Positions 2-46,991 of a stretch of DNA of 64,000 nt are shown piece by piece. This DNA comes from a virus, in IMG/VR virus record IMGVR_UViG_3300044971_004534. One strand, given 5' to 3'. A program made the position numbers and the translations under genes. How positions within the stretch are numbered: the first letter of the stretch is position 1; every line of letters starts with the position of its first letter. Under the pieces are notes generated by a model. The model saw nothing but the letters and a program-made list of their open reading frames with translations, had not been told where the DNA came from and searched no databases.

Positions 2-760
2 TATAAGCTGGCTCAAAATAGGTCTTTTTCTTGGGCCAATGTAGAGGGTATTTTATACACACCAGAGGCCATGAGAGACTTGAAAGATTTTAAGAAGTCT
101 CAGGAAGGAAGAAGTGCTAAGGAAATTAGCATGCTTATTAAAGACGTTATTGATAGAAGACAAATTAATTTACGGAATGTAGAATCCAGGTCTGCTGCAA
201 ATCCTTACATTCCAAACGGACCAAAAGAAAAAATAAAGATTCACGTATTTGAGCCAAGAGGTGTTGGACTCGCTGAAGGTCCCGGAAAGGCTTACAGAAT
301 AGGAGCACAACTATGTTCTTTAGGAGGAGAAACTTCAGAATCATCAGACAAATACATTCGAGAGCAAGAATTTGAAAGAACTGGACGTAAATTTTTAATT
401 ATCAAGAGAGTATTTGAAAATCATGATGAAGATTATTTGCCATGGATTAGTCTATATAATTCTTCTCACGTAGATGATTGTCCAAAATACACATTTCAAA
501 TTCAAAGAAAAGAAAACCAAGAAAAAATAGTAGATCTCAATCCTCAAAACCCTTTTGACTGGTTAGTAAATTCTGTAAAGATGATACGCGATAGAAATAT
601 TGAAGGCATCAGCATTCATAAAAGAATGCTTGAAGGAAAATCAGAAGAAGAAATTTTTAGTATTTTAGAATTTATGACAAAAAATCAGGCTAGATTCCCA
701 TCTAATATATTAAAAGATATAGGCAGGTGGATCGAGGAATACGTGGACAGAACAGGGTAA
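2..760 (+). CDS. hypothetical protein, 5' end cut by window edge; begins with (W)YKLAQ tag
   Basis: The frame of listed ORF 71..760 stays open back to nt 2 (YKLAQNRSFSWANVEG...). The first readable codons match the WYK[LIF][AS]Q N-terminal motif seen at 5891, 23590 and 30111. Confidence 0.6.
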   Translation, partial: YKLAQNRSFSWANVEGILYTPEAMRDLKDFKKSQEGRSAKEISMLIKDVIDRRQINLRNVESRSAANPYIPNGPKEKIKIHVFEPRGVGLAEGPGKAYRIGAQLCSLGGETSESSDKYIREQEFERTGRKFLIIKRVFENHDEDYLPWISLYNSSHVDDCPKYTFQIQRKENQEKIVDLNPQNPFDWLVNSVKMIRDRNIEGISIHKRMLEGKSEEEIFSILEFMTKNQARFPSNILKDIGRWIEEYVDRTG

Positions 761-3204: not shown

Positions 3205-5904
3205 ATGTATTTAAAGTATTTTATGAATATAGAAAAAACTGCACAACTTAATTGGTTTCGAGGAATAAGGGATCGCATTCGTGGCAACAAGCCAGATGAA
3301 AGCGGTCAAGAATTGTCATTTAATGAACAAGAACTGCGTGGGCTTGAAGAAATAGAAAGAAGAAAGACTGAAGAAGAAAGAAAAAGAGTTGATAAGCTGG
3401 TCCAAGAATCAAAAGAAAGAGCTGAAAGCTTTGGTAGACCTGACAATATTCCCGGAAAATTTGAATTAAGTAGATCTAGTATTCAAAATATATTGTCTAT
3501 GGACAGAGATACTTTATGGCATAAGCTTTGTGCATCTTTTGAGAATTGTTCTCCTTATGTTTCTGAAACTACGGCACAAAGGGGAAGAATAATAAGATAT
3601 CTTGTAGACACTAGGCAAGGCGATTATCGAGGTGGCTGGGGAAGTGTGCTTAGGAGCATAGATTTTCTACTGCAAGGATTAGAATTAGATATACGTAATG
3701 CAGGCAATAATAGTAAAGCGGCAATATCTCATAATAATATGCAAGAAATTTTTACCAATAGAGATTGGCTCATGGCAAATAAAGATGGAATTCAACGAGC
3801 CTATGCACAAGCATCTCCAGACTCTATTAATAAAGAAGTTTTAAATAAATTTTTAACAAATAAACAATCGTATTATGCTCGACGTGATGCAGCTATAGAA
3901 GTATGGGCATCATTTTTAAAAAATAAATATCAATATTACTATGGAAATACATTAAGTGATCAGTATTTTTATAATATTCATCTGTATGCGGATAGGTTAT
4001 GGGAAGATTTTAAATTATATTTTCGATTGATGTCAGGTAATCTATTCCACAACATAGGCATTCAATTAGGTAAAAAATACTTACCAGAAGATATGCAATC
4101 AATTTCTGATGGTGTTCATGCAATAGATGTAAGTATGTTCGACATAGCAAAGCCAGCTAATTTAATGCAATCACGCAGTAATGCAAGGGGTGAAAATGAT
4201 ATCTTTTATAATTGGACCGTGAATAAATGGAAAGAATTTGTAGAAGATACACATTTAATGCTAAGCGTCTTTGGATTTAATTTAAAAGGTGTGTCAAATA
4301 TTAATAATATAAATGGAGAAAATTTATATTACAATATGATGCAAAAAATAATTATGATAGAAAATATTGTTAATAGAGATCCTTTTATAAGTCATATTTT
4401 TAATAACAGTAGATTAGATTTAGGAGATAGCTATTATATATATGCACAAATTAAAGACAAAATGAGTGCTGATCATAATCCAAATAGAGAAGAATATTTA
4501 GTTTCTATATTAAATCAAATTTATGTTAATCAGCATGGAGGGTACTCAAGAGCAATATCTGAAGCTTCAGATGAAAGTTTGAGATCGGCGGCAGATAGGG
4601 TGCCATTTGCAGTAGAACATATTTTATTGCATTTAGAATTTGGTGAAAATATGTATAATGTTATTAATAATTTTGACCAATATCAATCTGCTCTAAATTC
4701 ATACAGAGAAAAACAGCATTCAGCATTAAAAAAAGTAAGAAACGTTCTAGCCAATCCTGATTTAACACAGATGTCTCCCGAAGAGGCAAGACAGTATTTT
4801 GTAGAAAAACTTAATAGACTAGCGAATAGGGAGTTTGAAGGTAGCAATATCGAAAAGGCAAAGCAAGAGCAAATTCTTGATTCTCCATTTGAGCACACAT
4901 CAGTGATAAGACCGTCTACCTTTCCTGGTCAAGCAGCATTTAATAGCAACTCCTTGCCTGAATTGCAAGGAACTCCAATTTCTTTTAATATAGCAATTTA
5001 TCCAAAAAAGAAAGAAAATGACCCGGAAAACTTTGCACAAGTTCTTGCTCCAGGTGGGCACGCACAAGATGGACTAAACTTTCATCATCAGAATATTCCG
5101 TCATTAGAAAATAAGAAATATTATAGTCATATACTTGGCTGGATAGGTGGATGGGTTGACGTAGTAGGCTCGAACATGTATATAGCAGAAATTCAAAGCG
5201 ACGTTATGCAACATACGTCTTACATGAAAGATCCAGAAAAGTCAAAAACAAAATTGAACGAAGAACTTAAAAAGCAAATGCAAGAATTGCAAAAAGAAAA
5301 AGACAATCTTGCTAAACAATCTACAGAAGGTATAGAAAAATTCTATGATAAAAGAATTGAAGAGTTAGAAAAAAAGAGAGATAGCGCAAATAATGAGGCA
5401 ATGAAGCAGCAAATGGATACTGCAATAAAAAAATTAACAGAACAAAAAAACGCTAAAGAAGATCCGTGGGTTAAACTAAGAAAAAAAATAAAAGACATAG
5501 AAAATGTTATTGTTGAAATTAAAAATCAAATTCAAGAGCTTATTGATTATGAAAGAAACACTAACGATCAATGGAGAAAAAGGCCGCAGTTTGCTGATGT
5601 AAAGTCAAAAATAGAAAATAGATTTTCTGAATATGTCGATGTTTTTTATAATGAAGCAATTTACTATTGTGCTCAACTCAAAATTAAAGGTTTATGGATA
5701 GTGCATTCAGATCTTTTAGCTGCAGTCTGGCGACATTTTGCAACGGCTGATACCGTAGAAATGTATAAGAAAATATACGACAAACGAGCGATGGAGATGG
5801 GAGCAGAAAAGAAGGGCAACTGGTGGCACTTAGATCTTACCAAGAAAATGCCTAAGTATGCAAGCACAAATTGGTATCAAAGGACTAAAAATGGGATGGT
5901 ATAA
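3205..5904 (+). CDS. large protein, paralog 1 of a tandem pair (unknown function)
   Basis: 899-aa ORF; the start may be the ATG at 3223 (MNIEKTAQLNWFRG). The C-terminal ~330 aa align with 5891..8986: FEHTS, FNIAIYPKK, GLNFH, GWIGGWVD, YIAEIQSDVMQ, ENRFSEYVDVFYNE, MYKKIYD, WWHLDL, MPKYAS, NWYQ. Confidence 0.85.
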   Translation: MYLKYFMNIEKTAQLNWFRGIRDRIRGNKPDESGQELSFNEQELRGLEEIERRKTEEERKRVDKLVQESKERAESFGRPDNIPGKFELSRSSIQNILSMDRDTLWHKLCASFENCSPYVSETTAQRGRIIRYLVDTRQGDYRGGWGSVLRSIDFLLQGLELDIRNAGNNSKAAISHNNMQEIFTNRDWLMANKDGIQRAYAQASPDSINKEVLNKFLTNKQSYYARRDAAIEVWASFLKNKYQYYYGNTLSDQYFYNIHLYADRLWEDFKLYFRLMSGNLFHNIGIQLGKKYLPEDMQSISDGVHAIDVSMFDIAKPANLMQSRSNARGENDIFYNWTVNKWKEFVEDTHLMLSVFGFNLKGVSNINNINGENLYYNMMQKIIMIENIVNRDPFISHIFNNSRLDLGDSYYIYAQIKDKMSADHNPNREEYLVSILNQIYVNQHGGYSRAISEASDESLRSAADRVPFAVEHILLHLEFGENMYNVINNFDQYQSALNSYREKQHSALKKVRNVLANPDLTQMSPEEARQYFVEKLNRLANREFEGSNIEKAKQEQILDSPFEHTSVIRPSTFPGQAAFNSNSLPELQGTPISFNIAIYPKKKENDPENFAQVLAPGGHAQDGLNFHHQNIPSLENKKYYSHILGWIGGWVDVVGSNMYIAEIQSDVMQHTSYMKDPEKSKTKLNEELKKQMQELQKEKDNLAKQSTEGIEKFYDKRIEELEKKRDSANNEAMKQQMDTAIKKLTEQKNAKEDPWVKLRKKIKDIENVIVEIKNQIQELIDYERNTNDQWRKRPQFADVKSKIENRFSEYVDVFYNEAIYYCAQLKIKGLWIVHSDLLAAVWRHFATADTVEMYKKIYDKRAMEMGAEKKGNWWHLDLTKKMPKYASTNWYQRTKNGMV

Positions 5905-8900
5905 GTTTGCACAACTTCATGCAATGAAGTGCTCTCCAGTAAACTTGAAAAAGTTACTGCAATTTGCACACACTCCAGGACAGGCTTATTTGTTCGAGAT
6001 GGGCGAAGAACATTCTGCTATGCAAAAACACATAGAAAGACTTGGCGGAAAAAGATATAAAATTCAATTTTTACTCAACACGTTTGATGCAATGCTTACC
6101 GATCTAGATAACACAAAATTAGATTTTGAAGTAGATCAAGATAGGATTGCAAATCGCATAGATTCCGACTATGTAGAAGAATCATATGGTTATATTTTTG
6201 ATGAAGATGACACTAAGTTTTGGGAAAACATAGATGGCATAAATGATCAAGTTTTAGAATTTATTGAAGAATCTTGGGATGTTTCTGAAGATGACTTTGA
6301 GAGTCGCTTATTTCATTATCCAGTAAGTAGTCGTGAACCAAATAATTCAAAAGAACTCGTTAGTCTCAAAGACATTTCAGAAGAACTGTCTAGTTTTGCG
6401 TATTTTGGAGATATGATTTCTTGCATAGGCAATTTGAAACATGATAAATATGTAGCTCGTGATATCATGAGAGAAATAGCGGATATAGATATTGATTTAA
6501 GGTCAATGGGAGAATCAGCAACCGGCATTCATGTTCATACGTGGGCTAAAAATAAAGGCATTGATCTGACGCTTGCTGTGGTTCAAAAAGCAGCAGGTGG
6601 AGAACAAAATGTTGAGATCGCAAAATACGATCCAGATTCAGCAAAACAAATAGCACAAAAAGCTTACTCTAATGTTGCAAATTCTTGGGTTGACAGTATA
6701 GAAAAATTACCACATTCTAAAACAGATTTAGAAGAAGCAATTGAAGAAGCATTCAGAGATCAGGTAAAAGAATCATGGTGGGAGTCTAACAAACAACGCT
6801 TTATGGAAGATGCAGTTGATAATGAAATTGAAAGTACTGCGGATTCATTTAATTATGATGATAGAAGATGGGCTAAAAACACATTGCCCGCAGAATCAGT
6901 AGACCCAAACGTCAGACATCATGTAAGTAAAACTTTTACGGAAGCATTAAAGGAGCACAGCTGGCTAGATAGAGACGAAGATTCTGGTCATGTACAGGTT
7001 GAAGCTAGTAGCTATTTTGCAAACTTAGGAGTTAAAGATTGGAGTAAAATAGCGGATGATATACAGGAAATGGCGGATGACCACGCAATGACTGGTTACG
7101 AAGATTATGTAAAAGAAATAAGATCATATACATCTATGATTAATTGGATTGTAGCAAGTGATCCAGACTTGTCTGCAATCTTTTCTGATGAAGACGCAGA
7201 CCCGACAACACTTACGCAGACTGCTACGGATTTGGGGCAAATAGTTAAAACTTCATATGAGGTTATATCTCTTATGCCTCAGGACGATGCAAGACGCATG
7301 GAGCAAAGCATAACTGCAGAAAATCCAGAGATTGAAGACTGGATTAAAGCCTTAAGAGAAAGAGAAGAAGTAGAAAGACAGGCGAGAGAAACTCAAGCTG
7401 CCATGCTTGCGGAAGAAGAGGCAAGAAAAGCTATACAAAGATCAAATAGAGAAAGAATTGAAAAAGAAGTTTCTGAAGAGTCTAAAAAAATTAATGATCC
7501 AAATATCGGCTCAAGGTCTTTCACAGAAGAGCAAAAGCAGCAGGCAAAAACTCAAAACATTATTGGTAAACCATTTGAGCACATGTCAACATTGCGGGTT
7601 GATCAAAAATACCCTGGAGTGAGCGCCTTTGTGTTAAAGCCAGTACCTATGGAAAGTGAAGTTCCTTATAAGACTTTCCATATTGCTATATATCCAAAAA
7701 AGGAGCAAAGCGATCCGACAAGACTGCATGATGTCTTTGATAGAAGTGCGGGTTTAAATTTTCATGGATTTAGTTTTCCTGAACATGTGAATGAAAATTA
7801 TTACGATCTTATTGGATGGGTTGGCGGCACTATTGACCTTTATAATAAGATAATGTACGTCACAGAAATACAAAGTGATGTAATGCAAAATACCCCTCGC
7901 ATGAAAGATGTTTCCAAGAGCATTGTTGCTTTGAACGAGGGAAAAAATAGCTTATTAGCTGAAGCTGAAAAAATAAAAACATATATTACCACAAATGATA
8001 TCAATGCATATTATGACAAGAGAATACAAGATTTAAAATTAAAAATTCAATCCATGAGTGACAGTCCTGCTGCAATGCAAATGCAGCAAGCTGTTTTAAA
8101 ATTAGAAGAGTTAAAGAATAAGGGTGTAGACCCTTTTGAAAAAGAAAGACAAAAACTACACGATATTGACAATAAACTTAAAGAGATTAATAGGCAAATA
8201 AATGATATAGAAGAATTTGATAAGAAACCTTCTGCCAAACTAAATAAACCTCATCTTTCAGAATTAAGATCTCGAATAGAAAATAGATTTACTGATTGGG
8301 TAGATACCTTCTATAATGAAATATTTATGTATTGTTCTCGCTTAGGAATAAAACATTTATATATAGCAGCTTCTTCTTATTTGTATCTAACATGGAGACA
8401 GTATGCCAAGGCATCTACACTAGAATTGTATAAAAAGATATATGATACAAAGGCTGAGAAGTACGGAATGCGTAAAGTACATTATAAGGGTGTCACGTAT
8501 TGGCATTTAGATCTATCAGAAAACATGCCAAAGTTTGCGAGCAAAGAAAGGTTACAAATGTCTAAAAATAATTGGTATAGGCAAATTAAAACTGCAATGG
8601 ATTTTAGCAGTATTTACATTGATGATATAAAAAGAAAATTTTCTAATGGAGAGATTACGGAAGAGCAAATGCAAGCGCAGATACGTGAAAGATATATGGA
8701 ACACACACAAGATCCAACTACTCGTGACCCAAAACTGTTTATTATAGAAGCAAAAACTTTCTTTGATACGATTAAGCATATTGAAGGCAGAGAAAGGGGT
8801 GGAGAAGATTCTGAGTTTTCAAAAGCTCAATTTATGAGGGAAGCATTGGGTCAGTTTTTAGAATTTAATGGTAAGAAATATACAGACAGAGACGGCAAGC

Positions 8901-8986
8901 TAGAAGAGCCATTTAAATCAATACTTCAAAGATTGCTTATACAGAAATTTAATTACGACATGGATTTAGATGAAATGGTAGAGTGA
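5891..8986 (+). CDS. large protein, paralog 2 of a tandem pair; N-terminal MGWYKFAQ tag
   Basis: Listed ORF 5858..8986. The ATG at 5891 gives MGWYKFAQ and a 14-nt overlap with the upstream stop. It shares FEHMS, FHIAIYPKK, GLNFH, GWVGGTID, YVTEIQSDVMQ, ENRFTDWVDTFYNE, LYKKIYD, YWHLDL, MPKFAS and NNWYRQ with paralog 1. Confidence 0.85.
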   Translation: MGWYKFAQLHAMKCSPVNLKKLLQFAHTPGQAYLFEMGEEHSAMQKHIERLGGKRYKIQFLLNTFDAMLTDLDNTKLDFEVDQDRIANRIDSDYVEESYGYIFDEDDTKFWENIDGINDQVLEFIEESWDVSEDDFESRLFHYPVSSREPNNSKELVSLKDISEELSSFAYFGDMISCIGNLKHDKYVARDIMREIADIDIDLRSMGESATGIHVHTWAKNKGIDLTLAVVQKAAGGEQNVEIAKYDPDSAKQIAQKAYSNVANSWVDSIEKLPHSKTDLEEAIEEAFRDQVKESWWESNKQRFMEDAVDNEIESTADSFNYDDRRWAKNTLPAESVDPNVRHHVSKTFTEALKEHSWLDRDEDSGHVQVEASSYFANLGVKDWSKIADDIQEMADDHAMTGYEDYVKEIRSYTSMINWIVASDPDLSAIFSDEDADPTTLTQTATDLGQIVKTSYEVISLMPQDDARRMEQSITAENPEIEDWIKALREREEVERQARETQAAMLAEEEARKAIQRSNRERIEKEVSEESKKINDPNIGSRSFTEEQKQQAKTQNIIGKPFEHMSTLRVDQKYPGVSAFVLKPVPMESEVPYKTFHIAIYPKKEQSDPTRLHDVFDRSAGLNFHGFSFPEHVNENYYDLIGWVGGTIDLYNKIMYVTEIQSDVMQNTPRMKDVSKSIVALNEGKNSLLAEAEKIKTYITTNDINAYYDKRIQDLKLKIQSMSDSPAAMQMQQAVLKLEELKNKGVDPFEKERQKLHDIDNKLKEINRQINDIEEFDKKPSAKLNKPHLSELRSRIENRFTDWVDTFYNEIFMYCSRLGIKHLYIAASSYLYLTWRQYAKASTLELYKKIYDTKAEKYGMRKVHYKGVTYWHLDLSENMPKFASKERLQMSKNNWYRQIKTAMDFSSIYIDDIKRKFSNGEITEEQMQAQIRERYMEHTQDPTTRDPKLFIIEAKTFFDTIKHIEGRERGGEDSEFSKAQFMREALGQFLEFNGKKYTDRDGKLEEPFKSILQRLLIQKFNYDMDLDEMVE

Positions 8987-9209: not shown

Positions 9210-9662
9210 ATGTTTAAAGTAAATGATATTAAAATATCAAAATATGACTGGATCAATATCGGCATACATGCTGGTTGGATCAAGACATCTCATATGGGGC
9301 ACGCTCCAAATGTCTACGATATGACTGCGCATATGTTGCATTACAGAAGCTTGTACGAAGAACACATCAGTCCTGTTATAAAAAAATTGGCAGTTCATTT
9401 GCAAAAAGGTCTTTTTAATAAAGAAATGGCTTTGGCTTCTTTTGAAAGAATTGCTCATAAAGGAATAGAAATGTATATTAAGGAGCATGGTGAAATAGAC
9501 GTGACTCCAATGATTGTAAGATCTATAGCTGAAAACTTATTAGACAACTACATGGAAGAGATAACAGATGAGCTTTTGACTATAAGTGACGAAAATATTG
9601 TGTCGAAAAATAAGGATGAGAAGAAAAAAGCTCCCAATAAACGCAGAGACCGTAATCCATAG
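9210..9662 (+). CDS. hypothetical protein with N-terminal W-x3-G-x3-GW tag
   Basis: N-terminus MFKVNDIKISKYDWINIGIHAGWIKTSHMG matches the K[ILM]S..[DE]W...G...GW motif shared with 20639, 21839, 28060, 47729, 48968 and 49758. Confidence 0.7.
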   Translation: MFKVNDIKISKYDWINIGIHAGWIKTSHMGHAPNVYDMTAHMLHYRSLYEEHISPVIKKLAVHLQKGLFNKEMALASFERIAHKGIEMYIKEHGEIDVTPMIVRSIAENLLDNYMEEITDELLTISDENIVSKNKDEKKKAPNKRRDRNP

Positions 9663-10704: not shown

Positions 10705-11241
10705 ATGAACAAATTTTCATGGACATTAAATGACACCGGATGGAGTATACAAAAGGTGGCTCAAGCTCCAACTGCAGAGCAAATGCAAGAAGTGGTAAGA
10801 AAGGCTAAGGATCAGAAAGAACAAGAAGCAAGCAAGGCTATGCAGGCAGTAACAGGAAAACCCCTAGCTTCAACGCTAGAGGGTCAGCGGCAACAAATGG
10901 CCAACATTGGCCAGGATGCAGCAATCAACATGGCAAATAAAGCCGGTTTAAAGGGCTCAAATGTAAAAGATATGATTGGCAACACTATATCTAGCCATCC
11001 TGGGTTCAGTGCTGTGATGAGTGCATTGAGTCCAAGCAGAGAACAAGCTATAAGTCAATTGTCAGATCCAGCTTGGCGTAAAAGCACTTTGCAAAATCTA
11101 CAAGCCAAGTTGGACAAGAGGATGGGTAATCCAAAAGCAGATCAACAAGTTATATCAATTTTGAAGTCACATATTGACCTAATTAATGCTGTTGAATCTG
11201 GAAAAATGACACCTGAACAGGCTTACGCTCAAGGTAAATAA
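10705..11241 (+). CDS. hypothetical protein, distant tag-like N-terminus (KFSWTLNDTGWSIQKVAQ)
   Basis: 178-aa ORF with AAAGGATAAAAT before the ATG. Alanine/glutamine-rich helical sequence. Confidence 0.65.
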   Translation: MNKFSWTLNDTGWSIQKVAQAPTAEQMQEVVRKAKDQKEQEASKAMQAVTGKPLASTLEGQRQQMANIGQDAAINMANKAGLKGSNVKDMIGNTISSHPGFSAVMSALSPSREQAISQLSDPAWRKSTLQNLQAKLDKRMGNPKADQQVISILKSHIDLINAVESGKMTPEQAYAQGK

Positions 11242-12594: not shown

Positions 12595-13212
12595 ATGGCT
12601 AATTCAAAAACACTTTATATCATGAGAGGACTGCCTGGCAGTGGCAAAAGTGCCGTTGCAGAAGTTTTAGCTCCAGGAAACGTATATGCTGCTGACGACT
12701 TTCCTGGTTTGTATGGAAAAGATATGAGCTTTAATCCATCTCTGCTAGGAAAGGCGCATGCAGCAACGCAAAGCAAAGTAATTGAGGCTATGGATCGCGG
12801 TGAGCCCAAGATAGCATTGGCCAATACCAACACCCAACACTGGGAGATGGCTCCTTATGTGAAAGCAGCACAAGAAAAAGGCTATTATGTAACTTTTGTG
12901 CATGTTGAGGGAACGGTTGCACCTACTGGAAGTAGTACAAAAAACATTCATGGAGTACCAGATGAAGCTCTTTCAAGAATGAAGGCTCGTTTTGAGCCAT
13001 TTGACCCAGCTAGGCGTCTTGAAGAAAGATCTCCGATGCCACCCAAGAAAGAAAGTCAGGAACATATGAGTTGGTACAAAGAAGCTAAGAAGAAAAAAGA
13101 ATATAATCCTAACCCATGGGCTGTTTGCACAGAATCTGTTGGTAGAGAAGATAAGAAGAAGTATGAAAGTTGCGTAATGCAGGTAAAAAAGAAACAGGGT
13201 AAAAAGAAATGA
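12595..13212 (+). CDS. P-loop kinase (AAA_33 / polynucleotide-kinase-like) fused in frame to a small basic WYK/NPWAVC module
   Basis: Walker A in YIMRGLPGSGKSAVAE, and ALANTNTQHW typical of predicted kinases. The C-terminal 48 aa are MSWYKEAKKKKEYNPNPWAVCTESVGREDKKKYESCVMQVKKKQGKKK. Confidence 0.7.
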   Translation: MANSKTLYIMRGLPGSGKSAVAEVLAPGNVYAADDFPGLYGKDMSFNPSLLGKAHAATQSKVIEAMDRGEPKIALANTNTQHWEMAPYVKAAQEKGYYVTFVHVEGTVAPTGSSTKNIHGVPDEALSRMKARFEPFDPARRLEERSPMPPKKESQEHMSWYKEAKKKKEYNPNPWAVCTESVGREDKKKYESCVMQVKKKQGKKK

Positions 13213-16963: not shown

Positions 16964-19900
16964 TTAAATGTTTTTAACAAAATTATACCATCTATTGTAG
17001 CTTGCTCTCTTTCTTCGTGGGCTAAGTCCTCCAATAAGCTTCTTTCCAAACTCTATTTCTGTTTTTGATTGTTCTGCATCAAGGGCCTTAAGCCTTATTT
17101 CTCTTTCTCTTATTTCATTCAATATTTTAATTCTAAGTTCGGATCTAGAATGACCATCCAAAACGTATTGATTTTCAATATCTCTAAGTTTTGATATTTC
17201 CTCAGCAATAGCTAGTTTTTGCTGCAATATGTCATAAAGTCTTTCATCTTCTTCCGTGTCAAGAAGCATATAGTTTACATGATTGTCAGTTAAACTGTTA
17301 ATCCTATAAAATCTACCTTTTGCCTGAGTATCGGAAACTGGAGTCTGAGGCAAATCATTAAAGATTACAAAATCTGCAGTATTTTCTAAACTTAAGCCTG
17401 TACCTCCAGCACTGAAAGAAATGATTATGGCCGCATATTGAGATTGGTCGTAATTTTTCATAAACTCGTCAACATGCATCATTCTATGAGATGGGTTTTC
17501 TTCACCATGCAAAAAGTATACATACTTATTTTTAAATGGCGAATTTTCCGGGAATTGCTTTAATGCATTTTCAATCATTTGCTTCATTGCCTGTCCAGCT
17601 TCGATATTGTCTGTAAAAATACCAACTCTTTTACCACTCATTAACTTTTCTATGGCCTGCCTTGCGCTCAATGGAGCTTTTGCTCTTGCAAGAGATCTTC
17701 TGATAATGCCATAGGCAACAAGTGGATGCTCTAAAGTTCCTCGCATCATTGCTGATTCAAATTCTGCATTTCTAATTTCCATAAAAGAAGAAAGAACATT
17801 TGGGTCATTACTGACAGAATCTTTCACAATTTGTTTTGGAAGCGCTGGCCTAGACGGATCAGAGTCGCGCATGTCTTCTACAATGTCATGCTTAGATCTT
17901 TGCATGTATATCTTAGACTGAACAATAGCGTCACGAATAGCTGTTCCGGTAGATGCTGAGCCTCCACTTGATACAGCAGATGCGAGCTGTGTTACGAAAG
18001 AACCATAATCCAGATCTCCAAGTGGACTATTTATTGCGCGCAATTGATTATATAAATCTTGCTCTTTATTGGCAACGATAGTAGCAGAAGCACCCCAAAC
18101 ATTGCTTGCACCATTTGTGACTATTTGTGTATTAAATGTAGTGAAGTTTGCTTCGTGTTCATCATCCAGCGTTTCGGCTTTATCATCTGGGTCTCCATTT
18201 TTTACAGTGTGTACTTCGTCAAGTATAACTACATCTAACACACCCAGTTTAGAAAGTGCATTGAAATATGCTGTGAGTATGTTTCTTTTTCCCTCTTCTC
18301 CGTACTGTAGTGCTCCAGACCTACCGCCCTTAGTCCCTTCAAGTTCTAATTTTTTTGATTCAAGATTTGATTTTTCTTCAACTGAAATATTCGGGTCTTG
18401 CAATTTATACATAATTTCATCAAGAGTGCTTGTTTTTTGTAGTCTCTCTTCCTGCCTTGCTATAAAGGACTGGTAAAAATTAACTTTGGAATCAACAGCA
18501 TCTCTTATCAAGGAACGAACTTTTTGCATTGCATCTGCCACATTTGTCAAATTCTTGGGATTTTCAAATGCAACCTTAACAACCTCAACCGCTGTTGATT
18601 TTGCTAAGCTTTCTGCATCTTTATCAATTTCTTTTTCTTTGAACCAAGACGAATCTCGGCTATTAAGGTACAAGCTTGGGTGTTTAGAGCTAATCTTAAC
18701 ATTGGTGTTTAAATAAGCTTGAACTGCATCCTTAATAGCTTTATTTTTATCCAGTCCCATATTATTAGCATTAATTACATTACTAATAGAAGCAAACATA
18801 TCTTGTACAATTTGTTCAGCATAGGAAAGAGATCTATTCATAATCATTTGATAAGCTGAAGATATGCTTTGTCTTCTTGCAATCAAGCTTCTTAGAATTT
18901 GCGGTCTTGGAGGTATGGCAAATTTTTCGTAGTTCAAAACACACCACTTCCAGTTGGGAACTGGTATTTTAGCATTTTGATTTTCATCAAATATTTTTGT
19001 GGGATGATCAAACTGCTTTAAATATTCAAATAACTCATCACCAGTCCATATCTGTTCTGGAGAAACTCCAGTATAATATTCTATTTCTTTTTTAAACTGC
19101 GGAACAACAGCAGACTTTGTTAAAACAACTGCCTTCATGTCTTTGTTCAACTTCTTTGCATCTGTTTTAAGTCTTAGGTGACCCGCAACAATAGCTTGAA
19201 GAGTTTTGCCAACTCCCGTTTCATCCCCAAGTATCGCATGAGTTCTTGAATATAAAAACTTTATGCCTTCAATTTGTTTTGGATATATTTGCACATTGTC
19301 TATATTAGCTTGCGGATTACGAGAAAGAGCCTTTTTCTGCAACCCACTGTTGGCTACTGCTTTTACTGCTTGTTCAAAATCCCCTTCAGATTTATAGCCA
19401 TCGCCATCAATAATGCCTTCAAATCTTGCAGTTTTTGGATCAACGTAAGACTTTTTGCGAGGATCGTAAAAAAGTCCACTATTGAAGTCTTTGAATACAA
19501 GAGCAACAAGTTTGTCAACTTTAACACCTCTAGTTCCGCAAATAGTAATGAATCTTTGGAAATCGCTTGGATCTCCTCTTACATACCAACCTTTCGCCGT
19601 AGCCTGTATGTCTGTTGTTTTATGTATGCGGCACAATCTTTTTCTTGGGATAGACCTGCCTCCTTCATCAAAAAGCTCTCTTGAGTAATTGGGATCGTCT
19701 GTAACTCCTGTAAATGCAAATGTTAAGCACTCAACGATATCTAACTGCCTTGGATACGGCACATTGACAATATTTGGGATGCTAATTCTGTACATCCAAT
19801 TTTTATTGGTTTCTTCAAAAATAGATTTAGCTTCTACCTCTGCAAAATTTCTTATGTCTGTAGACTCTTTAATATTTAAAAGATGGGAATCTGCATTGTC

Positions 19901-20569
19901 AACAGTGTCTATATCCCATCCATTTTCTACTAATTCTTGCAAAAGATGACTGTACTGCTCCGAAGTAATTACCTCAACAACATTAGTTGGCTTAGTAAGT
20001 CTGTCTCTCACTGTAGAAACAATTCCTACTTCCGTAAAAATTCTTAATAAGTCCATATTGTCAGTTGCAATTTTGGGTGCAATTATAAGATTTTTCCAGT
20101 TTTTGTCATCGTTTTTATTTAAAAATTCAAATTTATCAAATTTTTTAGATTTAGGAGCTGCTTTCTTTTTTCCAGGTTTCTTTGTTTTTTGCACCGAAGG
20201 TGACAGATTTGCTGGAGTAATTGTGGAAGATGGCTCAACTGCAGTAGCCTCTGAAACTGGCTGTGAAACAGCTGATATAAACTCGTCTTGAATTTCACCT
20301 TTTCCAAACTTACTAGCATGTTCTATTAATAACTGCATGTCTCCAGGCCGAGCAGCTGGAGGTAAACCTAAAAATAAAGACAGGTCAAGGGCGTTGATGG
20401 TCCTAAGTGATTTATTTGATATGTCTTTTAATCTCTTAATTTTTTTGTCATCTAGACCCATGTTTTTAAGGTCAGATTCAGGTCTACTCAACAAATCTTT
20501 AGTAAATGTTATGATGTTTCTTCCAGACTGAAGTGTCTGAGAGGTTTTAATAATATCAAAAAGTCTCAA
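16964..20569 (-). CDS. SNF2/Rad54-family helicase with ~430-aa N-terminal extension
   Basis: Motif I ILGDETGVGKTLQAI, motif II VILDEVHTVKNG, motif III WGASATIVANK, motif V FSAGGTGLSLE, motif VI SDTQAKGRFYRINS. N-terminus MRLFDIIKTSQ and C-terminus NRWYNFVKNI are tag-like. Confidence 0.9.
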   Translation of the reverse strand: MRLFDIIKTSQTLQSGRNIITFTKDLLSRPESDLKNMGLDDKKIKRLKDISNKSLRTINALDLSLFLGLPPAARPGDMQLLIEHASKFGKGEIQDEFISAVSQPVSEATAVEPSSTITPANLSPSVQKTKKPGKKKAAPKSKKFDKFEFLNKNDDKNWKNLIIAPKIATDNMDLLRIFTEVGIVSTVRDRLTKPTNVVEVITSEQYSHLLQELVENGWDIDTVDNADSHLLNIKESTDIRNFAEVEAKSIFEETNKNWMYRISIPNIVNVPYPRQLDIVECLTFAFTGVTDDPNYSRELFDEGGRSIPRKRLCRIHKTTDIQATAKGWYVRGDPSDFQRFITICGTRGVKVDKLVALVFKDFNSGLFYDPRKKSYVDPKTARFEGIIDGDGYKSEGDFEQAVKAVANSGLQKKALSRNPQANIDNVQIYPKQIEGIKFLYSRTHAILGDETGVGKTLQAIVAGHLRLKTDAKKLNKDMKAVVLTKSAVVPQFKKEIEYYTGVSPEQIWTGDELFEYLKQFDHPTKIFDENQNAKIPVPNWKWCVLNYEKFAIPPRPQILRSLIARRQSISSAYQMIMNRSLSYAEQIVQDMFASISNVINANNMGLDKNKAIKDAVQAYLNTNVKISSKHPSLYLNSRDSSWFKEKEIDKDAESLAKSTAVEVVKVAFENPKNLTNVADAMQKVRSLIRDAVDSKVNFYQSFIARQEERLQKTSTLDEIMYKLQDPNISVEEKSNLESKKLELEGTKGGRSGALQYGEEGKRNILTAYFNALSKLGVLDVVILDEVHTVKNGDPDDKAETLDDEHEANFTTFNTQIVTNGASNVWGASATIVANKEQDLYNQLRAINSPLGDLDYGSFVTQLASAVSSGGSASTGTAIRDAIVQSKIYMQRSKHDIVEDMRDSDPSRPALPKQIVKDSVSNDPNVLSSFMEIRNAEFESAMMRGTLEHPLVAYGIIRRSLARAKAPLSARQAIEKLMSGKRVGIFTDNIEAGQAMKQMIENALKQFPENSPFKNKYVYFLHGEENPSHRMMHVDEFMKNYDQSQYAAIIISFSAGGTGLSLENTADFVIFNDLPQTPVSDTQAKGRFYRINSLTDNHVNYMLLDTEEDERLYDILQQKLAIAEEISKLRDIENQYVLDGHSRSELRIKILNEIREREIRLKALDAEQSKTEIEFGKKLIGGLSPRRKRASYNRWYNFVKNI

Positions 20570-20638: not shown

Positions 20639-21820
20639 ATGGCAATTATAAAAACAAGTTCTACAACTGGTAAAAAAACCGTCATACTAAACGACCAAGA
20701 ATGGGTCGCTCAAGGGATTATTAACGGATGGTTCACTAATGATGAATTAAAAGAAATCACATCATTTGCATCCTCATTAGCAACTGATGCAAGAATCAAA
20801 GATCAACTATTGACAAAAATAGCATATATAGATGACTACACTCAGGCAGAACAAATGCGTAGATCAGAAGCTGCTCGCAAAGGAGCAGAAACAAGGCGCA
20901 GGAATAGAGCTGCCCAGCAAGCTCCAGCAGCAGCTCCAGCAGTAGCTCCAGTAGCAGCTCCAGTAGTAGCCCCAGCGGTAGCAGCGCAAATAAGAGATCC
21001 ACGCACTGGAATGATAGTGAGACAGACTCCAGAACAGATGATTGGAAGTATGCAAAGAAACAGGTTTGGAGATGCTGCCAGAGCAAACTATCAAAGATTG
21101 CAAAGCATGCCACCAGCTCAAAGAGAAGCTTTTATGAGTCAATTGCAGCAAACTCCACAAGGTAGACAGGCATTGACTCAAATAGCTCAATTTGAAAAAA
21201 ATGTTGCACCAGGAATGTCTGGATTTGTTCAGAGAATTGACCCAAAAACAGGAAAACCTATATCTCAATTAGCAGGCTTAGGACAGGATGTAGCTGCAAA
21301 AACAAGAGCTATTGGACAAGCAGTAAAGGGTACGCCGGGGCAAATTGCCAGAGTTGCTCCTCAGACGGCGCAAAACCTGAGCACGTTGGGAAGAGGGGTA
21401 CAGACTGTTGGTTCAGGAGCTGCAAATGTTGGAAGAATGGGGCTTCAGGGACTTGGGGCTGGTCCTCAAATAATGGGGGGTGTTGGCATTGGTGGTTTGC
21501 TAATGGGTGCGGGCGGCGCATATTTAGGAGCAAAAGGATACCAATATCTAAGAGACAGATCTATAAATAATCAAGTTATTAATAAGGAATTTTTAACTAA
21601 CCCACAAAAAGTTAATTCAGCTCTTGTAGCTAGCTCTCAGCTTAAATCTTTACAGGGAGCGAAGGGTGCTACAAATGCTATAGATGACGCCATTGAAAGA
21701 TTAAATGCAACAGTACTTGCAGCAATCAATAAAATGAATGAGCAGTCACCGCTTGCTCAACAAGTGGTTCAACAAACGCTGCAAGGCATGCAGCAACAAA
21801 GACCTCAACAACAGGCTTAA
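20639..21820 (+). CDS. tag / glycine-zipper / helix family protein (member A), AP- and Q-rich
   Basis: VILNDQEWVAQGIINGWF tag; APAAAPAVAPVAAPVVAPAVAA linker; glycine zipper IMGGVGIGGLLMGAGGAYLGAKGYQYLRD; Q-rich C-terminus. Confidence 0.8.
   Translation: MAIIKTSSTTGKKTVILNDQEWVAQGIINGWFTNDELKEITSFASSLATDARIKDQLLTKIAYIDDYTQAEQMRRSEAARKGAETRRRNRAAQQAPAAAPAVAPVAAPVVAPAVAAQIRDPRTGMIVRQTPEQMIGSMQRNRFGDAARANYQRLQSMPPAQREAFMSQLQQTPQGRQALTQIAQFEKNVAPGMSGFVQRIDPKTGKPISQLAGLGQDVAAKTRAIGQAVKGTPGQIARVAPQTAQNLSTLGRGVQTVGSGAANVGRMGLQGLGAGPQIMGGVGIGGLLMGAGGAYLGAKGYQYLRDRSINNQVINKEFLTNPQKVNSALVASSQLKSLQGAKGATNAIDDAIERLNATVLAAINKMNEQSPLAQQVVQQTLQGMQQQRPQQQA
20921..20986 (+). repeat. imperfect 12-nt tandem repeat (gctccagyagya) encoding an Ala-Pro-Val linker
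   Basis: gctccagcagca gctccagcagta gctccagtagca gctccagtagta gccccagcggta, read directly from the sequence. Confidence 0.8.
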
Positions 21821-21838: not shown

Positions 21839-22402
21839 ATGGAAAACAAAAAATTTAAACTTACAAAAGAAGCTTGGCAAAATGCCGGTGTTAAAAAGGG
21901 CTATTTTAAAAGTGCAGAAGAAAAAGATAGACTGCAAAAAGAAGCATTTGCTCCGTTAGTGACAGGGCTACTGGGGGGAGTTGCTGGTATGGCTGGCAAT
22001 TATCTTTATGATAAATATAAGTCTGGAGACTGGAAAGAAAGACTTTTTGGCTACGGAATACCTCAAGAAAAGATTAATCAAATAAAGCAAGTTTTACAGC
22101 AGTCTGAGGCTACGTTTGCAAATATAGCTGGAATGTCTCCACAGGTTGATGAGGCAATCAAGAATTTTAAAGAGCAGACCCAAGCTTCTTTGCAAAGAGC
22201 AGAAGCTGAAAATGCAGCTGCAGGAAAGGGCAATGCTCAATTGGCCGCAGATCAACTCGCCAAGCAGCAACAGCAAGGCCAAGCTCAGTCAGGACAAACT
22301 CCACAGCAGGGAGCACAGCCTGGTCAAGCTCAGCAGGGGGCTCAATCTGAGCAGGGGCAGCAGACAGGAAAGCCGCCTGAACTATTGGAAAAACCAGAAT
22401 AA
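21839..22402 (+). CDS. tag / glycine-zipper / helix family protein (member B), Q-rich tail
   Basis: KFKLTKEAWQNAGVKKGYF tag; LLGGVAGMAGNYLYDKYK zipper; ANIAGMSPQVDEAIKNF helix; C-terminal QQQGQAQSGQTPQQGAQPGQAQQGAQSEQGQQ. Confidence 0.8.
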   Translation: MENKKFKLTKEAWQNAGVKKGYFKSAEEKDRLQKEAFAPLVTGLLGGVAGMAGNYLYDKYKSGDWKERLFGYGIPQEKINQIKQVLQQSEATFANIAGMSPQVDEAIKNFKEQTQASLQRAEAENAAAGKGNAQLAADQLAKQQQQGQAQSGQTPQQGAQPGQAQQGAQSEQGQQTGKPPELLEKPE

Positions 22403-23589: not shown

Positions 23590-24354
23590 ATGACCTGGTA
23601 TAAATTATCACAGCAATTCTCTGGCAGTACGTATACGGTTGTAGAAGGGGATAGTCTATCTGGCATAGCAAAAAAAATGCTGCATGATATTAATCGATGG
23701 CCAGAAATACAAAAACTTAATAATATTGATGACCCAAATAAGATACAGCCTGGTCAAGTTATAAAATTACCAGAAAAAAAAATACAGACAGATCAAGATA
23801 ATAAAAAAACAAAAATTCAGAATACAGCAAATAATGTTGACGTTTTTGAAGAGCTAAAAAAAGAAATCTCAAGTGGAGAGGGCAACTACTACTCATACAA
23901 TAGGGGGGTAGCTGGCGATACTCCAAAACCAAAAATAGATATTACCAAATTAACAGTGGGACAGATTATTAAAATGCAAAATACTAGTGGTTCAGACAAA
24001 AAAAAGCTTCTTTTTGCTGTTGGAAAATATCAAATGACACCAGCTACACTTGCAGAATCAATAAGGCATCCTAAAGTTGGAGTAAGCTTAAATGATTTAT
24101 TTACTCCAGATGTACAAGAAAAACTATTTATGTATTTACTATATAAAAGAGCCAACTTAATGGCCTATATAGAAGGTAGAAGTGACAACATAGATGCTGC
24201 CGTCAATGACTTGGCCGCTGAATTTGCGTCTTTACCAACAACTTCCGGCAAAGGCAGATACGATAAAGACAAGGCAGGAAATATGGCAAGTGGTGGACTT
24301 GCTAGAGTAGAAAGAATAAAGTCAATACTTTTAAATATAAAAAATAATCGTTAA
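23590..24354 (+). CDS. LysM-domain peptidoglycan hydrolase (lysozyme/transglycosylase-like) with N-terminal MTWYKLSQ tag
   Basis: LysM: YTVVEGDSLSGIAKKML...INRWPEIQKLNNIDDPNKIQPGQVIKLP. The C-terminal EISSGEGNYYSYN...AVGKYQMTPATL resembles the E-S-x-G ... G-x-YQ motif of lysozyme-like transglycosylases. Confidence 0.7.
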   Translation: MTWYKLSQQFSGSTYTVVEGDSLSGIAKKMLHDINRWPEIQKLNNIDDPNKIQPGQVIKLPEKKIQTDQDNKKTKIQNTANNVDVFEELKKEISSGEGNYYSYNRGVAGDTPKPKIDITKLTVGQIIKMQNTSGSDKKKLLFAVGKYQMTPATLAESIRHPKVGVSLNDLFTPDVQEKLFMYLLYKRANLMAYIEGRSDNIDAAVNDLAAEFASLPTTSGKGRYDKDKAGNMASGGLARVERIKSILLNIKNNR

Positions 24355-27401: not shown

Positions 27402-27692
27402 ATGATAAAAATAGAGTCTAATTATTTCAAAAAACAAGCAAATGTCCAGATGTCTATTGTTCACTTTGAGCAAGATGCAGACGGGTGGCACTATGTTGAT
27501 GAGTCTTATGTTGATCCAAGTAGAAATGAAGAGGATCAGATAAATTCTTTTATAGAAAATAGTATTAGCAAAAGCATGAACCTTAAAGAAGCTGGACAAA
27601 ATATTTTTGTTTCAGATCAAGATATGTTCAAATTAAAAAATAGTAATAAAAAATTCACAATTAAAAATGGAAAGGTAACCGTACATGTCTAG
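27402..27692 (+). CDS. hypothetical protein
   Basis: Internal ATG (MIKIESNYFKKQ) of listed ORF 27258..27692. The upstream part overlaps the previous gene. Confidence 0.5.
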   Translation: MIKIESNYFKKQANVQMSIVHFEQDADGWHYVDESYVDPSRNEEDQINSFIENSISKSMNLKEAGQNIFVSDQDMFKLKNSNKKFTIKNGKVTVHV

Positions 27693-28620
27693 CTCAAATA
27701 TTCCAGTTGAAGTGATTGAAGATGCAAGATCGTTGGCAGAACGCAACGGCACGACTATTGGTATTTGGGAAGCACAGCCAAATAAGGGAAACAGAGGCTT
27801 TGTTGTGATGCCTACAGAAAACATGCATAAGTTTACTGAAAGAATAGAGATAAAAGGTTTTACTACAAATCCCACCGGTGAAGAGATTATTCCTAATCCT
27901 ATAACAACTATTGATCCACCCGTCAAATACAGAAGAGGTACTGATCTTTATAGAAGGCAAAGATCTGGGTGGAGAAAGCAACCAAAAACTGAACAAGAAA
28001 TTGGAGTAAGAAATATTGAATTAACAGCTCCAGATTTGAGGCTTGTGGCTAAAGTAAAAATGAATAAAAACGAGTGGGTTAAAATTGGAGAGTCTCAAGG
28101 TTGGATTAAGTCTAAAGATGATCCGGCAAATATGAAAGTGGCTCTCCCTGTTCTTCCCTTGCTAGGAGTTGCTGCTAATTTAGCTTCTCCTTTTATTATA
28201 AATTGGATGATGAGCTCTGGAGAGCAACCATCGCAAGATCCACAGCAGTTTCAGGGACAGATGCAACAAATGAGTCAAGAAGTGAAACAGCAAGCAGATC
28301 AAGTGTTAAAGCCGACGATACAGGCGATACAGCAGCAGGCTGCTAGATTAAATGCATACTGTGCTAATGATACTCAGTCTCCACCATGCCCACCAGATGG
28401 AGAAGTAAAAGATATAAATAAATTCAAACAAAAATTAACTCAAATACAGCAAAAAATGAAAAGCACACAATTTAGCAACGATCCAATGTATGTGTGTCAG
28501 CTATATAGAGAAGCACTTGAATTAAATTCTTGTGCTGCATCTGTTATTGGCATGATTAATGAAGTTAAAAATAATATGCAGAATATGGAATTTAATCCTG
28601 CAGCGAATTTAAGACTGTGA
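27685..28620 (+). CDS. tag / hydrophobic-segment / Q-rich family protein (member C) with an extra N-terminal domain
   Basis: The tag KMNKNEWVKIGESQGWIKSKDD is internal (about residue 126). It is followed by ALPVLPLLGVAANLASPFIINWMM and the Q-rich QDPQQFQGQMQQMSQEVKQQADQ. Confidence 0.7.
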   Translation: MSSSNIPVEVIEDARSLAERNGTTIGIWEAQPNKGNRGFVVMPTENMHKFTERIEIKGFTTNPTGEEIIPNPITTIDPPVKYRRGTDLYRRQRSGWRKQPKTEQEIGVRNIELTAPDLRLVAKVKMNKNEWVKIGESQGWIKSKDDPANMKVALPVLPLLGVAANLASPFIINWMMSSGEQPSQDPQQFQGQMQQMSQEVKQQADQVLKPTIQAIQQQAARLNAYCANDTQSPPCPPDGEVKDINKFKQKLTQIQQKMKSTQFSNDPMYVCQLYREALELNSCAASVIGMINEVKNNMQNMEFNPAANLRL

Positions 28621-30114: not shown

Positions 30115-30575
30115 ATAATTGGTATAAAATTTCGCAAGCAAAAGGAGCTCCTCCCCCGCCGCCACCACCCCCGCCACCGCCGCCCGGAGTACCTCCGCCA
30201 CCTCCTGGAGGTGCTGCTCCTGCCGGTCCTTCTGAGCAGCGCGTAGGAACAGTTTCAGGAGTAGACGCAGAAGAAGTTAATGAGATTAAAAAAGATGATA
30301 AAAAATTGCTTAAAAAATTAAATAAGCATTTTAAAAACGCTATCGATTCTGGTCACGATATTGAATTGTCTGCAATTATGGCAATTATGGCAAATGGATC
30401 TACGTTAAGTCCTGGGCAGCTAGATATAGCAGAAACATTTGACCCTGATTTCCCCGAACAAGATCCTCCCTTCATAAGGTCAATCATAGGAATTCATTTG
30501 GGGACTAAGGCGCCAGGTCAGGCTACTCCTGATGGAGCCACAGGAGCTCCACCACCGCCTCCTCCAGGTCTATAA
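30111..30575 (+). CDS. polyproline protein with N-terminal MNNWYKISQ tag
   Basis: MNNWYKISQAKGA-P12-GVPPPPPGG ... GAPPPPPPGL. Proline tracts lie at both ends of a ~100-aa helical core. Confidence 0.75.
   Translation: MNNWYKISQAKGAPPPPPPPPPPPPGVPPPPPGGAAPAGPSEQRVGTVSGVDAEEVNEIKKDDKKLLKKLNKHFKNAIDSGHDIELSAIMAIMANGSTLSPGQLDIAETFDPDFPEQDPPFIRSIIGIHLGTKAPGQATPDGATGAPPPPPPGL
30150..30206 (+). repeat. GC-rich CCN run encoding P12-GV-P5
   Basis: cct ccc ccg ccg cca cca ccc ccg cca ccg ccg ccc gga gta cct ccg cca cct cct. This is a local GC island in an AT-rich genome. Confidence 0.9.
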
Positions 30576-30576
30576 A

Positions 30577-35662: not shown

Positions 35663-35663
35663 T

Positions 35664-40629: not shown

Positions 40630-40641
40630 GAAAGGAACAAT

Positions 40642-43851: not shown

Positions 43852-43861
43852 AAAACACTCC

Positions 43862-44476: not shown

Positions 44477-44484
44477 ATTATCCC

Positions 44485-45069: not shown

Positions 45070-45114
45070 GGTATAATATATTATATTTTCTAAAATTTTG
45101 AGGTTATTCCTATC

Positions 45115-45975: not shown

Positions 45976-45997
45976 TTAATTTTTTTAATAATAAAAA

Positions 45998-46015: not shown

Positions 46016-46042
46016 ATTTTTATTTTATCATTTTTACTTTAA

Positions 46043-46975: not shown

Positions 46976-46991
46976 GTGAATTATGTCCTTA

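Follow-up and report, generated by a model that had tools for sequence, protein, structure and literature searches.

Why do otherwise unrelated proteins of one virus begin with the same short peptide? The question is raised by a stretch of 64,000 nucleotides from the IMG/VR record IMGVR_UViG_3300044971_004534 (the window), in which a preliminary description, made from the letters alone, had noticed a WYK-containing peptide at the ends of several proteins and had proposed a sorting, packaging or docking signal. We found that this peptide, here called the tag, has the consensus MNWYKxAQ; pattern scans located it at the starts of hundreds of genes on contigs from viruses and metagenomes, where the tagged genes often stand in tandem. 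The window has a GC content of 36% and densely packed genes, and it stems from a huge uncultured phage, since its exact proteins also sit on contigs of 280, 301 and 401 kb (e.g. JGI 3300036398 Ga0334988_0000001). DNA stretches compared with the window are given L-numbers; L124 is the stretch of the source contig that reaches upstream of the window.

Five genes of the window, the truncated first open reading frame (ORF1) included, begin with M, one or two further residues and WYK:

2..16, plus strand: YKLAQ, the last five tag codons of ORF1 (2..760); full start MNWYKLAQ at L124:8752 (a stop codon, then rMNWYKLAQnrsf); orthologue MNWYKFAQ
5891..5914, plus strand: MGWYKFAQ, tag of a 1031-residue protein (5891..8986); orthologue MQWYKFAQ; AGGA 6 nucleotides upstream of the ATG
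23590..23613, plus strand: MTWYKLSQ, tag of a LysM and lysozyme-like protein (23590..24354); orthologues MTWYKMSQ, MNWFKISQ and TTWYKCAQ
30111..30137, plus strand: MNNWYKISQ, tag of a polyproline protein (30111..30575); orthologues MNNWYKISQ and MALWYKIAQ; AGAGG upstream
13066..13089, plus strand: MSWYKEAK at an in-frame internal Met of the ORF 12595..13212; AGGA upstream; heads a 48-residue Cys-containing mini-domain

The first four are the N-terminal copies claimed in the preliminary description, all of them present where it had placed them (nucleotides 2, 5891, 23590 and 30111), and its MSWYKEAKKKK at 13066 likewise lies at a possible start with a ribosome-binding signal. Another tagged gene (MNWYKSAR) is located 3 kb upstream of the window.

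Chance was assessed by shuffling each of the 78 window proteins taken into the test (5000 shuffles). WYK is present in the first six residues of three proteins where 0.010 were expected. Ten of the 78 have K[TILFVM][AS]Q within residues 1-25, compared with an expectation of 0.26. None of the shuffles reached either number. In the whole window proteome, 10 of the 14 occurrences of the second pattern are N-terminal. The recurrence, which had been proposed subject to such a shuffled control, is thereby confirmed: it is real and far beyond chance. A further doubt had concerned the start codons; since orthologues in related contigs, 28-86% identical, retain the tag at their own starts (see the list), the tagged start codons are supported.

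The mini-domain headed by MSWYKEAK belongs to an AAA_33 kinase gene, as a fusion or as a nested gene, and the same arrangement is found in L028 and L029 (MNWYKSAKKEKEWDPNPWAVCT). In 12595-13212 it reads ..NPNPWAVCT..KYESCV.. and is fused in frame to the kinase; possibly it is a gene within a gene, expressed by internal initiation.

Peptide-level selection, carriers and spread

The consensus was drawn from 155 unique N-terminal instances pooled from the compared loci, in which W and Y are invariant by the selection of the instances. Position 1 is M in 96% and position 2 is N in 68%, otherwise S, A, D, T or G. Position 5 is K in 92% and is followed by the variable residue x, after which position 7 is A (52%), S (26%) or I (14%) and position 8 is Q (65%) or K (19%); after residue 8 no conservation was found. 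The residue x is hydrophobic in a minority of instances (I in 20, L in 11 and F in 9 of the 155) and often Lys, Gln or Arg. At the DNA level, Asn is encoded by AAC (28) or AAT (24), Gln by both of its codons, and the Ala/Ser positions by eight different codons (GCA/GCT/GCG/GCC/TCN/AGT), and nothing is conserved upstream besides a purine-rich ribosome-binding signal of the Shine-Dalgarno type. Because synonymous sites vary and the upstream DNA is unconserved, this comparison shows the tag to be under selection at the peptide level.

Two features of the underlying DNA are regarded as by-products. TGGTATAAR resembles an extended -10 box (TGnTATAAT), and ATGAAYTGGTATAA contains a stop codon in each of the other frames (TGA and TAA), with the result that upstream ORFs end in NELV or, in the window, in NGMV. 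An extended -10 promoter or a repeat, that is, an element acting as DNA, was rejected since wobble positions vary and the flanks are unconserved, and a role as provider of out-of-frame stops was rejected because the upstream stops in L072 mostly precede the ATG. Positions +6 and +7, although unconserved, also show raised identity within a locus (0.14-0.17 vs 0.08). The raised identity at x is thus ascribed to local paralogy, and the idea that a genome-specific x co-evolves with a reader was rejected on the same ground.

Viral contigs yielded 112 complete tagged ORFs, which BLASTP grouped into 75 clusters. The earlier view that common ancestry of whole proteins does not explain the peptide therefore holds, and by this clustering the tag is shown to be portable between unrelated proteins. 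The carriers have a median length of about 138-151 residues, usually one domain, a median pI of 5.9 and almost never a transmembrane segment. GNAT acetyltransferases account for 15 of 143 and ART-PolyVal proteins for 5 among the metagenome carriers listed; other families are AAA_33 or polynucleotide kinases, cREC_REC, 2H phosphoesterases, HicA, lysozyme/SLT, helix-turn-helix (HTH) proteins and sigma region 4, ParB-like proteins, DnaJ and glucose-6-phosphate dehydrogenase (G6PD), together with the anti-defence enzymes Acb1 (anti-CBASS) and Tad6 (anti-Thoeris). Alignments of the AAA_33 kinases to cultured phages begin at residue 9-11, so the homologues in cultured phages lack the tag. In the window, the carriers (the LysM-lysozyme protein, basic low-complexity proteins with glycine zippers and giant proteins) look like virion or ejection proteins from their sequences, and the catalytic part of the LysM-lysozyme protein is homologous to domains within phage proteins of 2000 residues. 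Among 148 untagged neighbours of tagged genes, no conserved neighbour or partner gene was found.

With the pattern ATGNNNTGGTATAARNNNKCNCAR, 99 stretches were matched in IMG/VR viral contigs. About 25 of these belong to two chance families, one an out-of-frame match in a recombination-nuclease (SbcC-like) gene and the other a conserved small ORF adjoining a giant-virus-type capsid gene; most of the remaining matches are true gene starts, often several per contig, on contigs of 18-548 kb. The stricter pattern ATGAAYTGGTATAARNNNGCNCAR gave 38 matches in those viral loci and, in 596 Gb of genomes from bacteria and archaea, only four stretches, of which two look like phage contigs binned into metagenome-assembled genomes (MAGs) and two like chance matches. 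In metagenomes, the same pattern gave at least 120 stretches (493 kb) with at least 301 tagged ORFs, 0.61 per kb among the matches listed. Lake and sediment samples (e.g. JGI 3300036398 and 3300035698) hold many such contigs. Across these collections the tag is shown to be virus-specific. As controls, 14 unrelated lysozyme loci contained essentially no tags, and 80 viral loci with a subtilase (about 1.2 Mb) contained tags only in a known relative and in one doubtful case.

Where the tag occurs, it can be dense: 138 of the 467 called genes in 33 tag-rich loci are tagged (about 30%), with 13 tagged starts in 14 kb of L107 and 16 in 8 kb of L072, and the tandem arrays are often located at contig ends. 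The peptide is near-invariant across phage contigs of 24-50% GC that have almost no genes in common. In the full-text library searched, no description of the motif was found; the preliminary description, too, knew of no function for it.

Three loci deserve mention for their gene content. L025 (IMGVR_UViG_3300018050_001860, 40528-54789) has 50% GC, compared with 31-37% in the other stretches of its contig; its G6PD starts MNWYKWAQ and the neighbouring genes start M[NS]WYKWAQ; genes that this contig has apparently acquired carry the tag. L072:387-7690 is a tandem tagged array in which 11 genes are paralogues of a family of about 125-260 residues with the pattern Y-x-D-I-G-H ... LW ... GR[FY]; relatives are present in L043, L085, L098 and L109, and no match to the family was found in cultured phages. 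L045:8232-10489 (minus strand), on the same 461-kb contig as a tag, holds a separate paralogue array starting MKIR-x-GFVSNSSSSSF.

Variant copies and related motifs

Besides the canonical copies, degenerate, C-terminal and internal copies had been described for the window; φ stands for a hydrophobic residue here and below:

3223..3246, plus strand: MNIEKTAQ, degenerate N-terminal version; orthologue MDTEKTAQ
20537..20569, minus strand: LRLFDIIKTSQ, degenerate N-terminus of the SNF2 helicase; orthologues IIKSSQ/IIKLAQ; compare MKIIKT[AS]NY
20639..20662, plus strand: MAIIKTSS, degenerate N-terminus of a 393-residue basic low-complexity protein; conserved in orthologues
48942..48968, minus strand: MARFIKTAN, degenerate N-terminus of a 409-residue protein (47739..48968); orthologues FIKTSA/FIKTSS
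10741..10764, plus strand: WSIQKVAQ, K-φ-A-Q class, residues 13-20 of protein 10705..11241; orthologue WSIEKLAQ
45157..45177, plus strand: LLEKLAQ, K-φ-A-Q class, near the N-terminus of protein 45115..45975
46901..46921, minus strand: NFKKIAQ, K-φ-A-Q class, near the N-terminus of protein 46043..46975
5866..5901, plus strand: TNWYQRTKNGMV before the stop codon, C-terminal copy of an 899-residue protein (3205..5904); orthologue ends in PKYAKVNWYKKVKNAMV
16967..16996, minus strand: NRWYNFVKNI before the stop codon, C-terminal copy of the SNF2 helicase (16964..20569); conserved in four orthologues
8567..8599, plus strand: NNWYRQIKTAM, internal copy in protein 5891..8986

Of the degenerate N-terminal versions, MNIEKTAQ, IIKTSQ, IIKTSS and FIKTAN are conserved in orthologues, and IQKVAQ and FKKIAQ, together with LEKLAQ, fit the enriched K-φ-A-Q class. 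SWNKLAE lacks such support, since its orthologues read NWNKLVSE, NWSNLKNI and NWKSFMEK. MNIEKTAQ is the probable true start of the gene 3205..5904. The C-terminal list held for two proteins: STNWYQRTKNG is kept in the orthologue of the 899-residue protein (VNWYKKVKNAMV before the stop), whose stop codon falls within the TAT-AAG of the following gene's tag, and the SNF2 orthologues end in INGWYNFIKNT or carry QSWYKNATS or, in L029, IGWYKLAQSLF near the C-terminus. VQWYKKRGG (14536-14568) was rejected as a tag, as it lies in a DUF5872 match.

The internal NNWYRQIKTAM matches MNWYRQIKIA, an N-terminal variant at gene starts in L072. It sits near the point where the L001 orthologue ends, which comes 11 residues after that protein's own WYK; the window protein is about 130 residues longer, and its extension looks like a gene fusion at a tag. 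The giant proteins 3205-5904 and 5891-8986 have a homologous region (..WHLDL..MPK[YF]AS..NWY..) in common.

Two further recurrent starts were found. One is an N-terminal module of 22 residues, x-φ-K-φ-[ST]-K-x-[ED]-W-x-x-φ-G-x-x-x-G-W-φ-K-x-[AS], carried by seven window proteins and by proteins of other tag-bearing contigs:

9228..9290, plus strand: long module IKISKYDWINIGIHAGWIKTS; its last part, GW-φ-K-x-[AS]-x, resembles the tag
20681..20734, plus strand: long module VILNDQEWVAQGIINGWF, following the IIKTSS start
21854..21910, plus strand: long module FKLTKEAWQNAGVKKGYFK
28054..28116, plus strand: long module VKMNKNEWVKIGESQGWIKSK, internal in protein 27685..28620
47661..47717, minus strand: long module MIKISQTQWLASGIRKGYV
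48873..48929, minus strand: long module, following the FIKTAN start
49702..49758, minus strand: long module MIKLSSADWLKIGIENNWV

The module ends in a tag-like GW-φ-K-x-A-Q (e.g. GWIKLAQ, GWFKIAQ), and the short tag looks like its last third. Its carriers in the window are basic, low-complexity proteins with glycine zippers and are plausibly internal or ejection proteins. Searches of Pfam, PHROG and PDB with the module and its carriers gave nothing significant; a resemblance to helix 1 of the Gin invertase was dropped as not significant (E=1.5). The other start is MKIIKT[AS]NY, which heads small genes adjoining the head module in related phages and matches IIKTSQ, IIKTSS and FIKTAN of the window.

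A capsid lineage and the possible function of the tag

In L033, the tag array adjoins the gene of a 290-residue major head protein, which matches phrog_2522 (E=2e-66) and PDB 6WKK, 'Gp27 major capsid protein' (E=3e-92), and is 55% identical to gp27 of Bacillus phage G. Capsid copies that are 65-93% identical were found on at least 19 contigs that the tag pattern had picked out independently, including all seven contigs of 296-548 kb, one MAG contig (L120) and one metagenome locus (L322); in 14 of 80 loci tags are located within 10 kb of the capsid gene. On the contigs compared, the tag is shown to track one capsid-protein lineage, and phage G was found to be the closest cultured relative as judged by the capsid protein. 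The head module consists, in this order, of a giant protein of 1835-2269 residues, a decoration-like protein, the capsid protein and often tagged genes. The giant protein has a head-maturation-protease domain near its N-terminus and starts in the register of the tag (MAMYKRAT, MAMYKKAT, MIYKFAL, MLYKHAL or MGFIKKAS); no Pfam effector domains were found in the giant head proteins, only an intein.

An intein and homing endonuclease genes are present in this region: in L347:2501-9310 an intein (Hint plus LAGLIDADG) is inserted in the protease domain of the giant protein, and LAGLIDADG homing endonuclease genes directly follow the capsid gene in L033 and L340. In phage G itself (L412, positions 1-26000), head-region proteins have basic starts (LSRIKKIN in gp5, LTRLKKIK in gp9, LKRLIKKS in gp17, ..SRLKKTAL in gp20) that faintly resemble ARFIKTAN of the window, and gp116, which the phage G paper names Acb1, has the start MYKATG.

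As the best-supported reading, we tentatively propose that MNWYKxAQ may be a cargo-loading or capsid-targeting peptide, like the capsid targeting sequence (CTS) of T4, the signal of P1 DarB and the targeting peptides of encapsulins. The tag would be a short terminal address peptide of a huge uncultured phage lineage, probably forming an amphipathic turn or helix that presents Trp3, Tyr4 and Ala7. It would dock on a conserved component of the assembling procapsid, for which the 290-residue HK97-fold capsid protein and the adjoining giant protease/scaffold protein are candidates. In this way the phage might load a large and fast-changing set of small effectors into the head, together with ejection-type and giant proteins, and these might be delivered with the DNA.

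The T-even internal proteins are diverse defence proteins with only the capsid targeting sequence in common, and like the tag carriers they include anti-defence proteins (PMC3012670). As with the tag, the T4 CTS (MKTYQEFIAE, IPI-III) is an N-terminal leader of about ten residues on unrelated, fast-evolving small proteins, and the tandem arrays, in which small unrelated genes have a leader in common, resemble the T-even arrangement. Tyr4 is present in both, but there is no other sequence similarity, and the T4 CTS ends in a gp21 site (L/I-x-E), whereas the tag ends in A-Q or I-K and has no Glu cleavage site. In addition, the head genes associated with the tag are of the phage G gp27 HK97 type and not of the T4 type, and the tag has far more carriers per genome, C-terminal copies and a packaging role that we infer.

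Encapsulin targeting peptides are short and terminal, usually C-terminal, reside on unrelated cargo enzymes and bind inside an HK97-fold shell of about 270-300-residue proteins. The co-occurrence of the tag with a capsid protein of this type and size is similar, and equally explicable by shared ancestry; the consensus differs, and the shell of the tagged lineage is that of a genuine phage, which has a portal, a tail and DNA. The N-terminal signal of P1 DarB sends a giant helicase/methylase anti-restriction protein, and also a reporter, into the capsid; residues 6-10 are required for this, and residues 1-30 suffice (PMC9024508). Comparable in the window are an SNF2 helicase and giant proteins with tag-like termini, but the Dar proteins have no consensus among themselves and no similarity to MNWYKxAQ. 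Polyvalent proteins carry effector domains predicted to be packaged in the capsid and co-injected (Iyer et al. 2017, PMC5512222). The same domain set is found on the tag carriers (ART-PolyVal, GNAT, kinase, SNF2, ParB, lysozyme/SLT), as solo tagged proteins, whereas polyvalent proteins fuse 2-15 domains in one giant polypeptide. Thus, terminal targeting peptides on phage proteins have precedents, and the sequence, the scale and the lineage of the tag appear to be new. Particle proteomics of phage G detected many non-structural proteins in the particles (PMC12484599); the tag is not mentioned in that multi-omics paper.

Of the sorting, packaging or docking signal first suggested, the portable terminal tag has stood, and packaging is suggested by the capsid lineage, the protease start and the likeness to co-injected effectors. 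The presence of tagged proteins in the virion is inferred, and several points weigh against loading into the capsid. The link to the capsid lineage comes from related contigs, as the stretches that could be joined to the window contain no head gene, and the co-occurrence may reflect shared ancestry only. No tag and no 22-residue module was found in the first 100 kb of phage G, and a search of GenBank phage records with 48 common tag variants, sensitive to near-exact 21-24-mers under a low-complexity filter, gave no match. The tagged proteins are mostly acidic soluble enzymes, among which G6PD, DnaJ and HTH regulators would be odd cargo, and with up to 30% of the genes tagged in some loci the cargo list would be very large. 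Finally, unlike in the T4 CTS, no conserved protease site follows the tag, and the T4 model has no need of the conserved C-terminal copies.

A wider version of the loading hypothesis, which we consider possible and hold with more reserve, is a sorting code of the phage's own. MNWYKxAQ, MKIIKT[AS]NY and the module K-φ-S-K-x-E-W-x-x-φ-G-x-x-x-G-W-φ-K would together direct a share of the accessory proteome, between a tenth and a third and with anti-defence enzymes among it, to the capsid or to some other structure that the phage builds, with a conserved capsid or scaffold protein as the reader.

It might also be that the tag is read by a host machine, as a docking motif or degron for an AAA+ protease adaptor or a chaperone that sets the lifetime or activity of early takeover effectors. 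ClpX N-motif 1 has the form polar-T/φ-φ-basic-φ (NTAKI in lambda O, STAKL in Dps), which N-W-Y-K fits as a polar-φ-φ-basic-φ start. The strict register (M at -2 in 96% of the 155 instances), toxins among the carriers that may need switching off (HicA, ART, GNAT) and the near-invariance across contigs with few common genes, which suits a universal reader, would be explained as well. However, Trp-Tyr is invariant and Ala-Gln conserved in the tag, and in most instances x is not hydrophobic. A host reader also sits badly with the confinement to one viral capsid lineage, the absence from the other viral loci examined, the four cellular stretches of which two are apparently phage contigs in MAG bins, the C-terminal and internal copies, the longer module and the tag-like start of the head protease protein. 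We judge this explanation unlikely.

We would give about as little credit to a short linear motif that is read by a phage protein and targets some other hub made by the phage (for example, a replication factory, a compartment or a multi-enzyme scaffold). A terminal, portable and lineage-specific motif on cytoplasmic enzymes and DNA-binding proteins could be read in this way, and N- plus C-terminal copies are typical of hub-binding linear motifs, but the 148 untagged neighbours include no conserved partner gene and no compartment genes were recognised in the window. The sole candidate tested as reader or processing enzyme, an S8 subtilase located beside tags in the window clade, L072 and L105, failed: it has a signal peptide, and the 80 subtilase loci are nearly tagless.

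That the first codons act on translation, by nascent-chain, early-elongation or overlapping-gene coupling and without any address, is very improbable. The fixed position at codons 3-5, an A-rich codon 2 and the stops that ATGAAYTGGTATAA provides for upstream ORFs would be consistent with it, but the signal is not in the RNA, since synonymous sites vary, conservation reaches Ala7-Gln8, upstream stops in L072 come mostly before the ATG, C-terminal and internal copies exist, and the cellular genomes gave only four stretches. Least credible of all is a functionless peptide left by cassette duplication and recombination in hypervariable arrays, since the arrays at contig ends, the raised identity at +6/+7 and the 11 paralogues of L072 are outweighed by the lack of conservation upstream and at wobble positions, by the retention of the tag in orthologues of 28-60% identity and by its recurrence in 75 unrelated families and on contigs of 24-50% GC.

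If the tag is a loading signal, it would explain how phages with very large capsids deliver a rapidly changing arsenal at DNA entry, namely ADP-ribosyltransferases, acetyltransferases, kinases and anti-CBASS and anti-Thoeris enzymes. Its eight residues would also serve as a handle for finding effectors in metagenomes, where most carriers lack a known function, for testing the particle contents of megaphages and for engineering protein delivery. The sorting code, if true, would be the first general cargo-loading system for megaphages and would offer a ready tag for packaging foreign proteins. Even with another function, an eight-residue peptide that hardly varies among hundreds of unrelated proteins within a single virus lineage marks a recognition system that is undescribed and open to experiment.

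Other genes of the window

For the majority of the window proteins no Pfam or PHROG match was obtained. Recognisable genes encode the SNF2 helicase, a ribonucleotide reductase, the LysM-lysozyme protein, a sigma factor, an HNH endonuclease, the AAA_33 kinase and tail-fibre-like proteins. When the first 25 kb were compared by megablast, no phage record was matched, and searches with two window proteins found no close cultured relative: the SNF2 protein gave only weak partial matches, in three records, which cover about 30% of the query at 22-24% identity, and the 494-residue protein encoded upstream of the polyproline gene matched nothing in cultured phages. The latter was considered as a portal and rejected, as its AlphaFold model (predicted local distance difference test score 80) had no PDB fold match at E<=0.001.

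Three ORFs, judged by eye, are presumably auxiliary metabolic genes: 30532-31209 resembles a superoxide dismutase (..LPELKYEYSFLEPEIS..), 25554-26648 a UDP-galactopyranose mutase-like flavoprotein and 34229-35074 a ThyX-like gene. Near tags, 35607-35978 encodes a small Cys-containing membrane protein (..VEKG-DFPIK..CxxCxSFW..), which is also present in L043, L063 and L085 and is thus common to four otherwise unrelated tag-bearing contigs. A DUF1360-like membrane protein is shared by four contigs.

About 1-2.5 kb upstream of the window start, L124:6261-7718 encodes the subtilisin-like S8 peptidase, with signal peptide, propeptide and dockerin-like repeats. Copies 56-72% identical are found in contigs of 39-52% GC, nearly all of them without tags, which suggests that the gene was spread by horizontal transfer. 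At the other end, a highly repetitive gene for a protein of 1748 residues (61800-64000, and L128:10247-15493) runs past the end of the window; it follows the tail-fibre-like genes, one of which has an Mtd_N domain.

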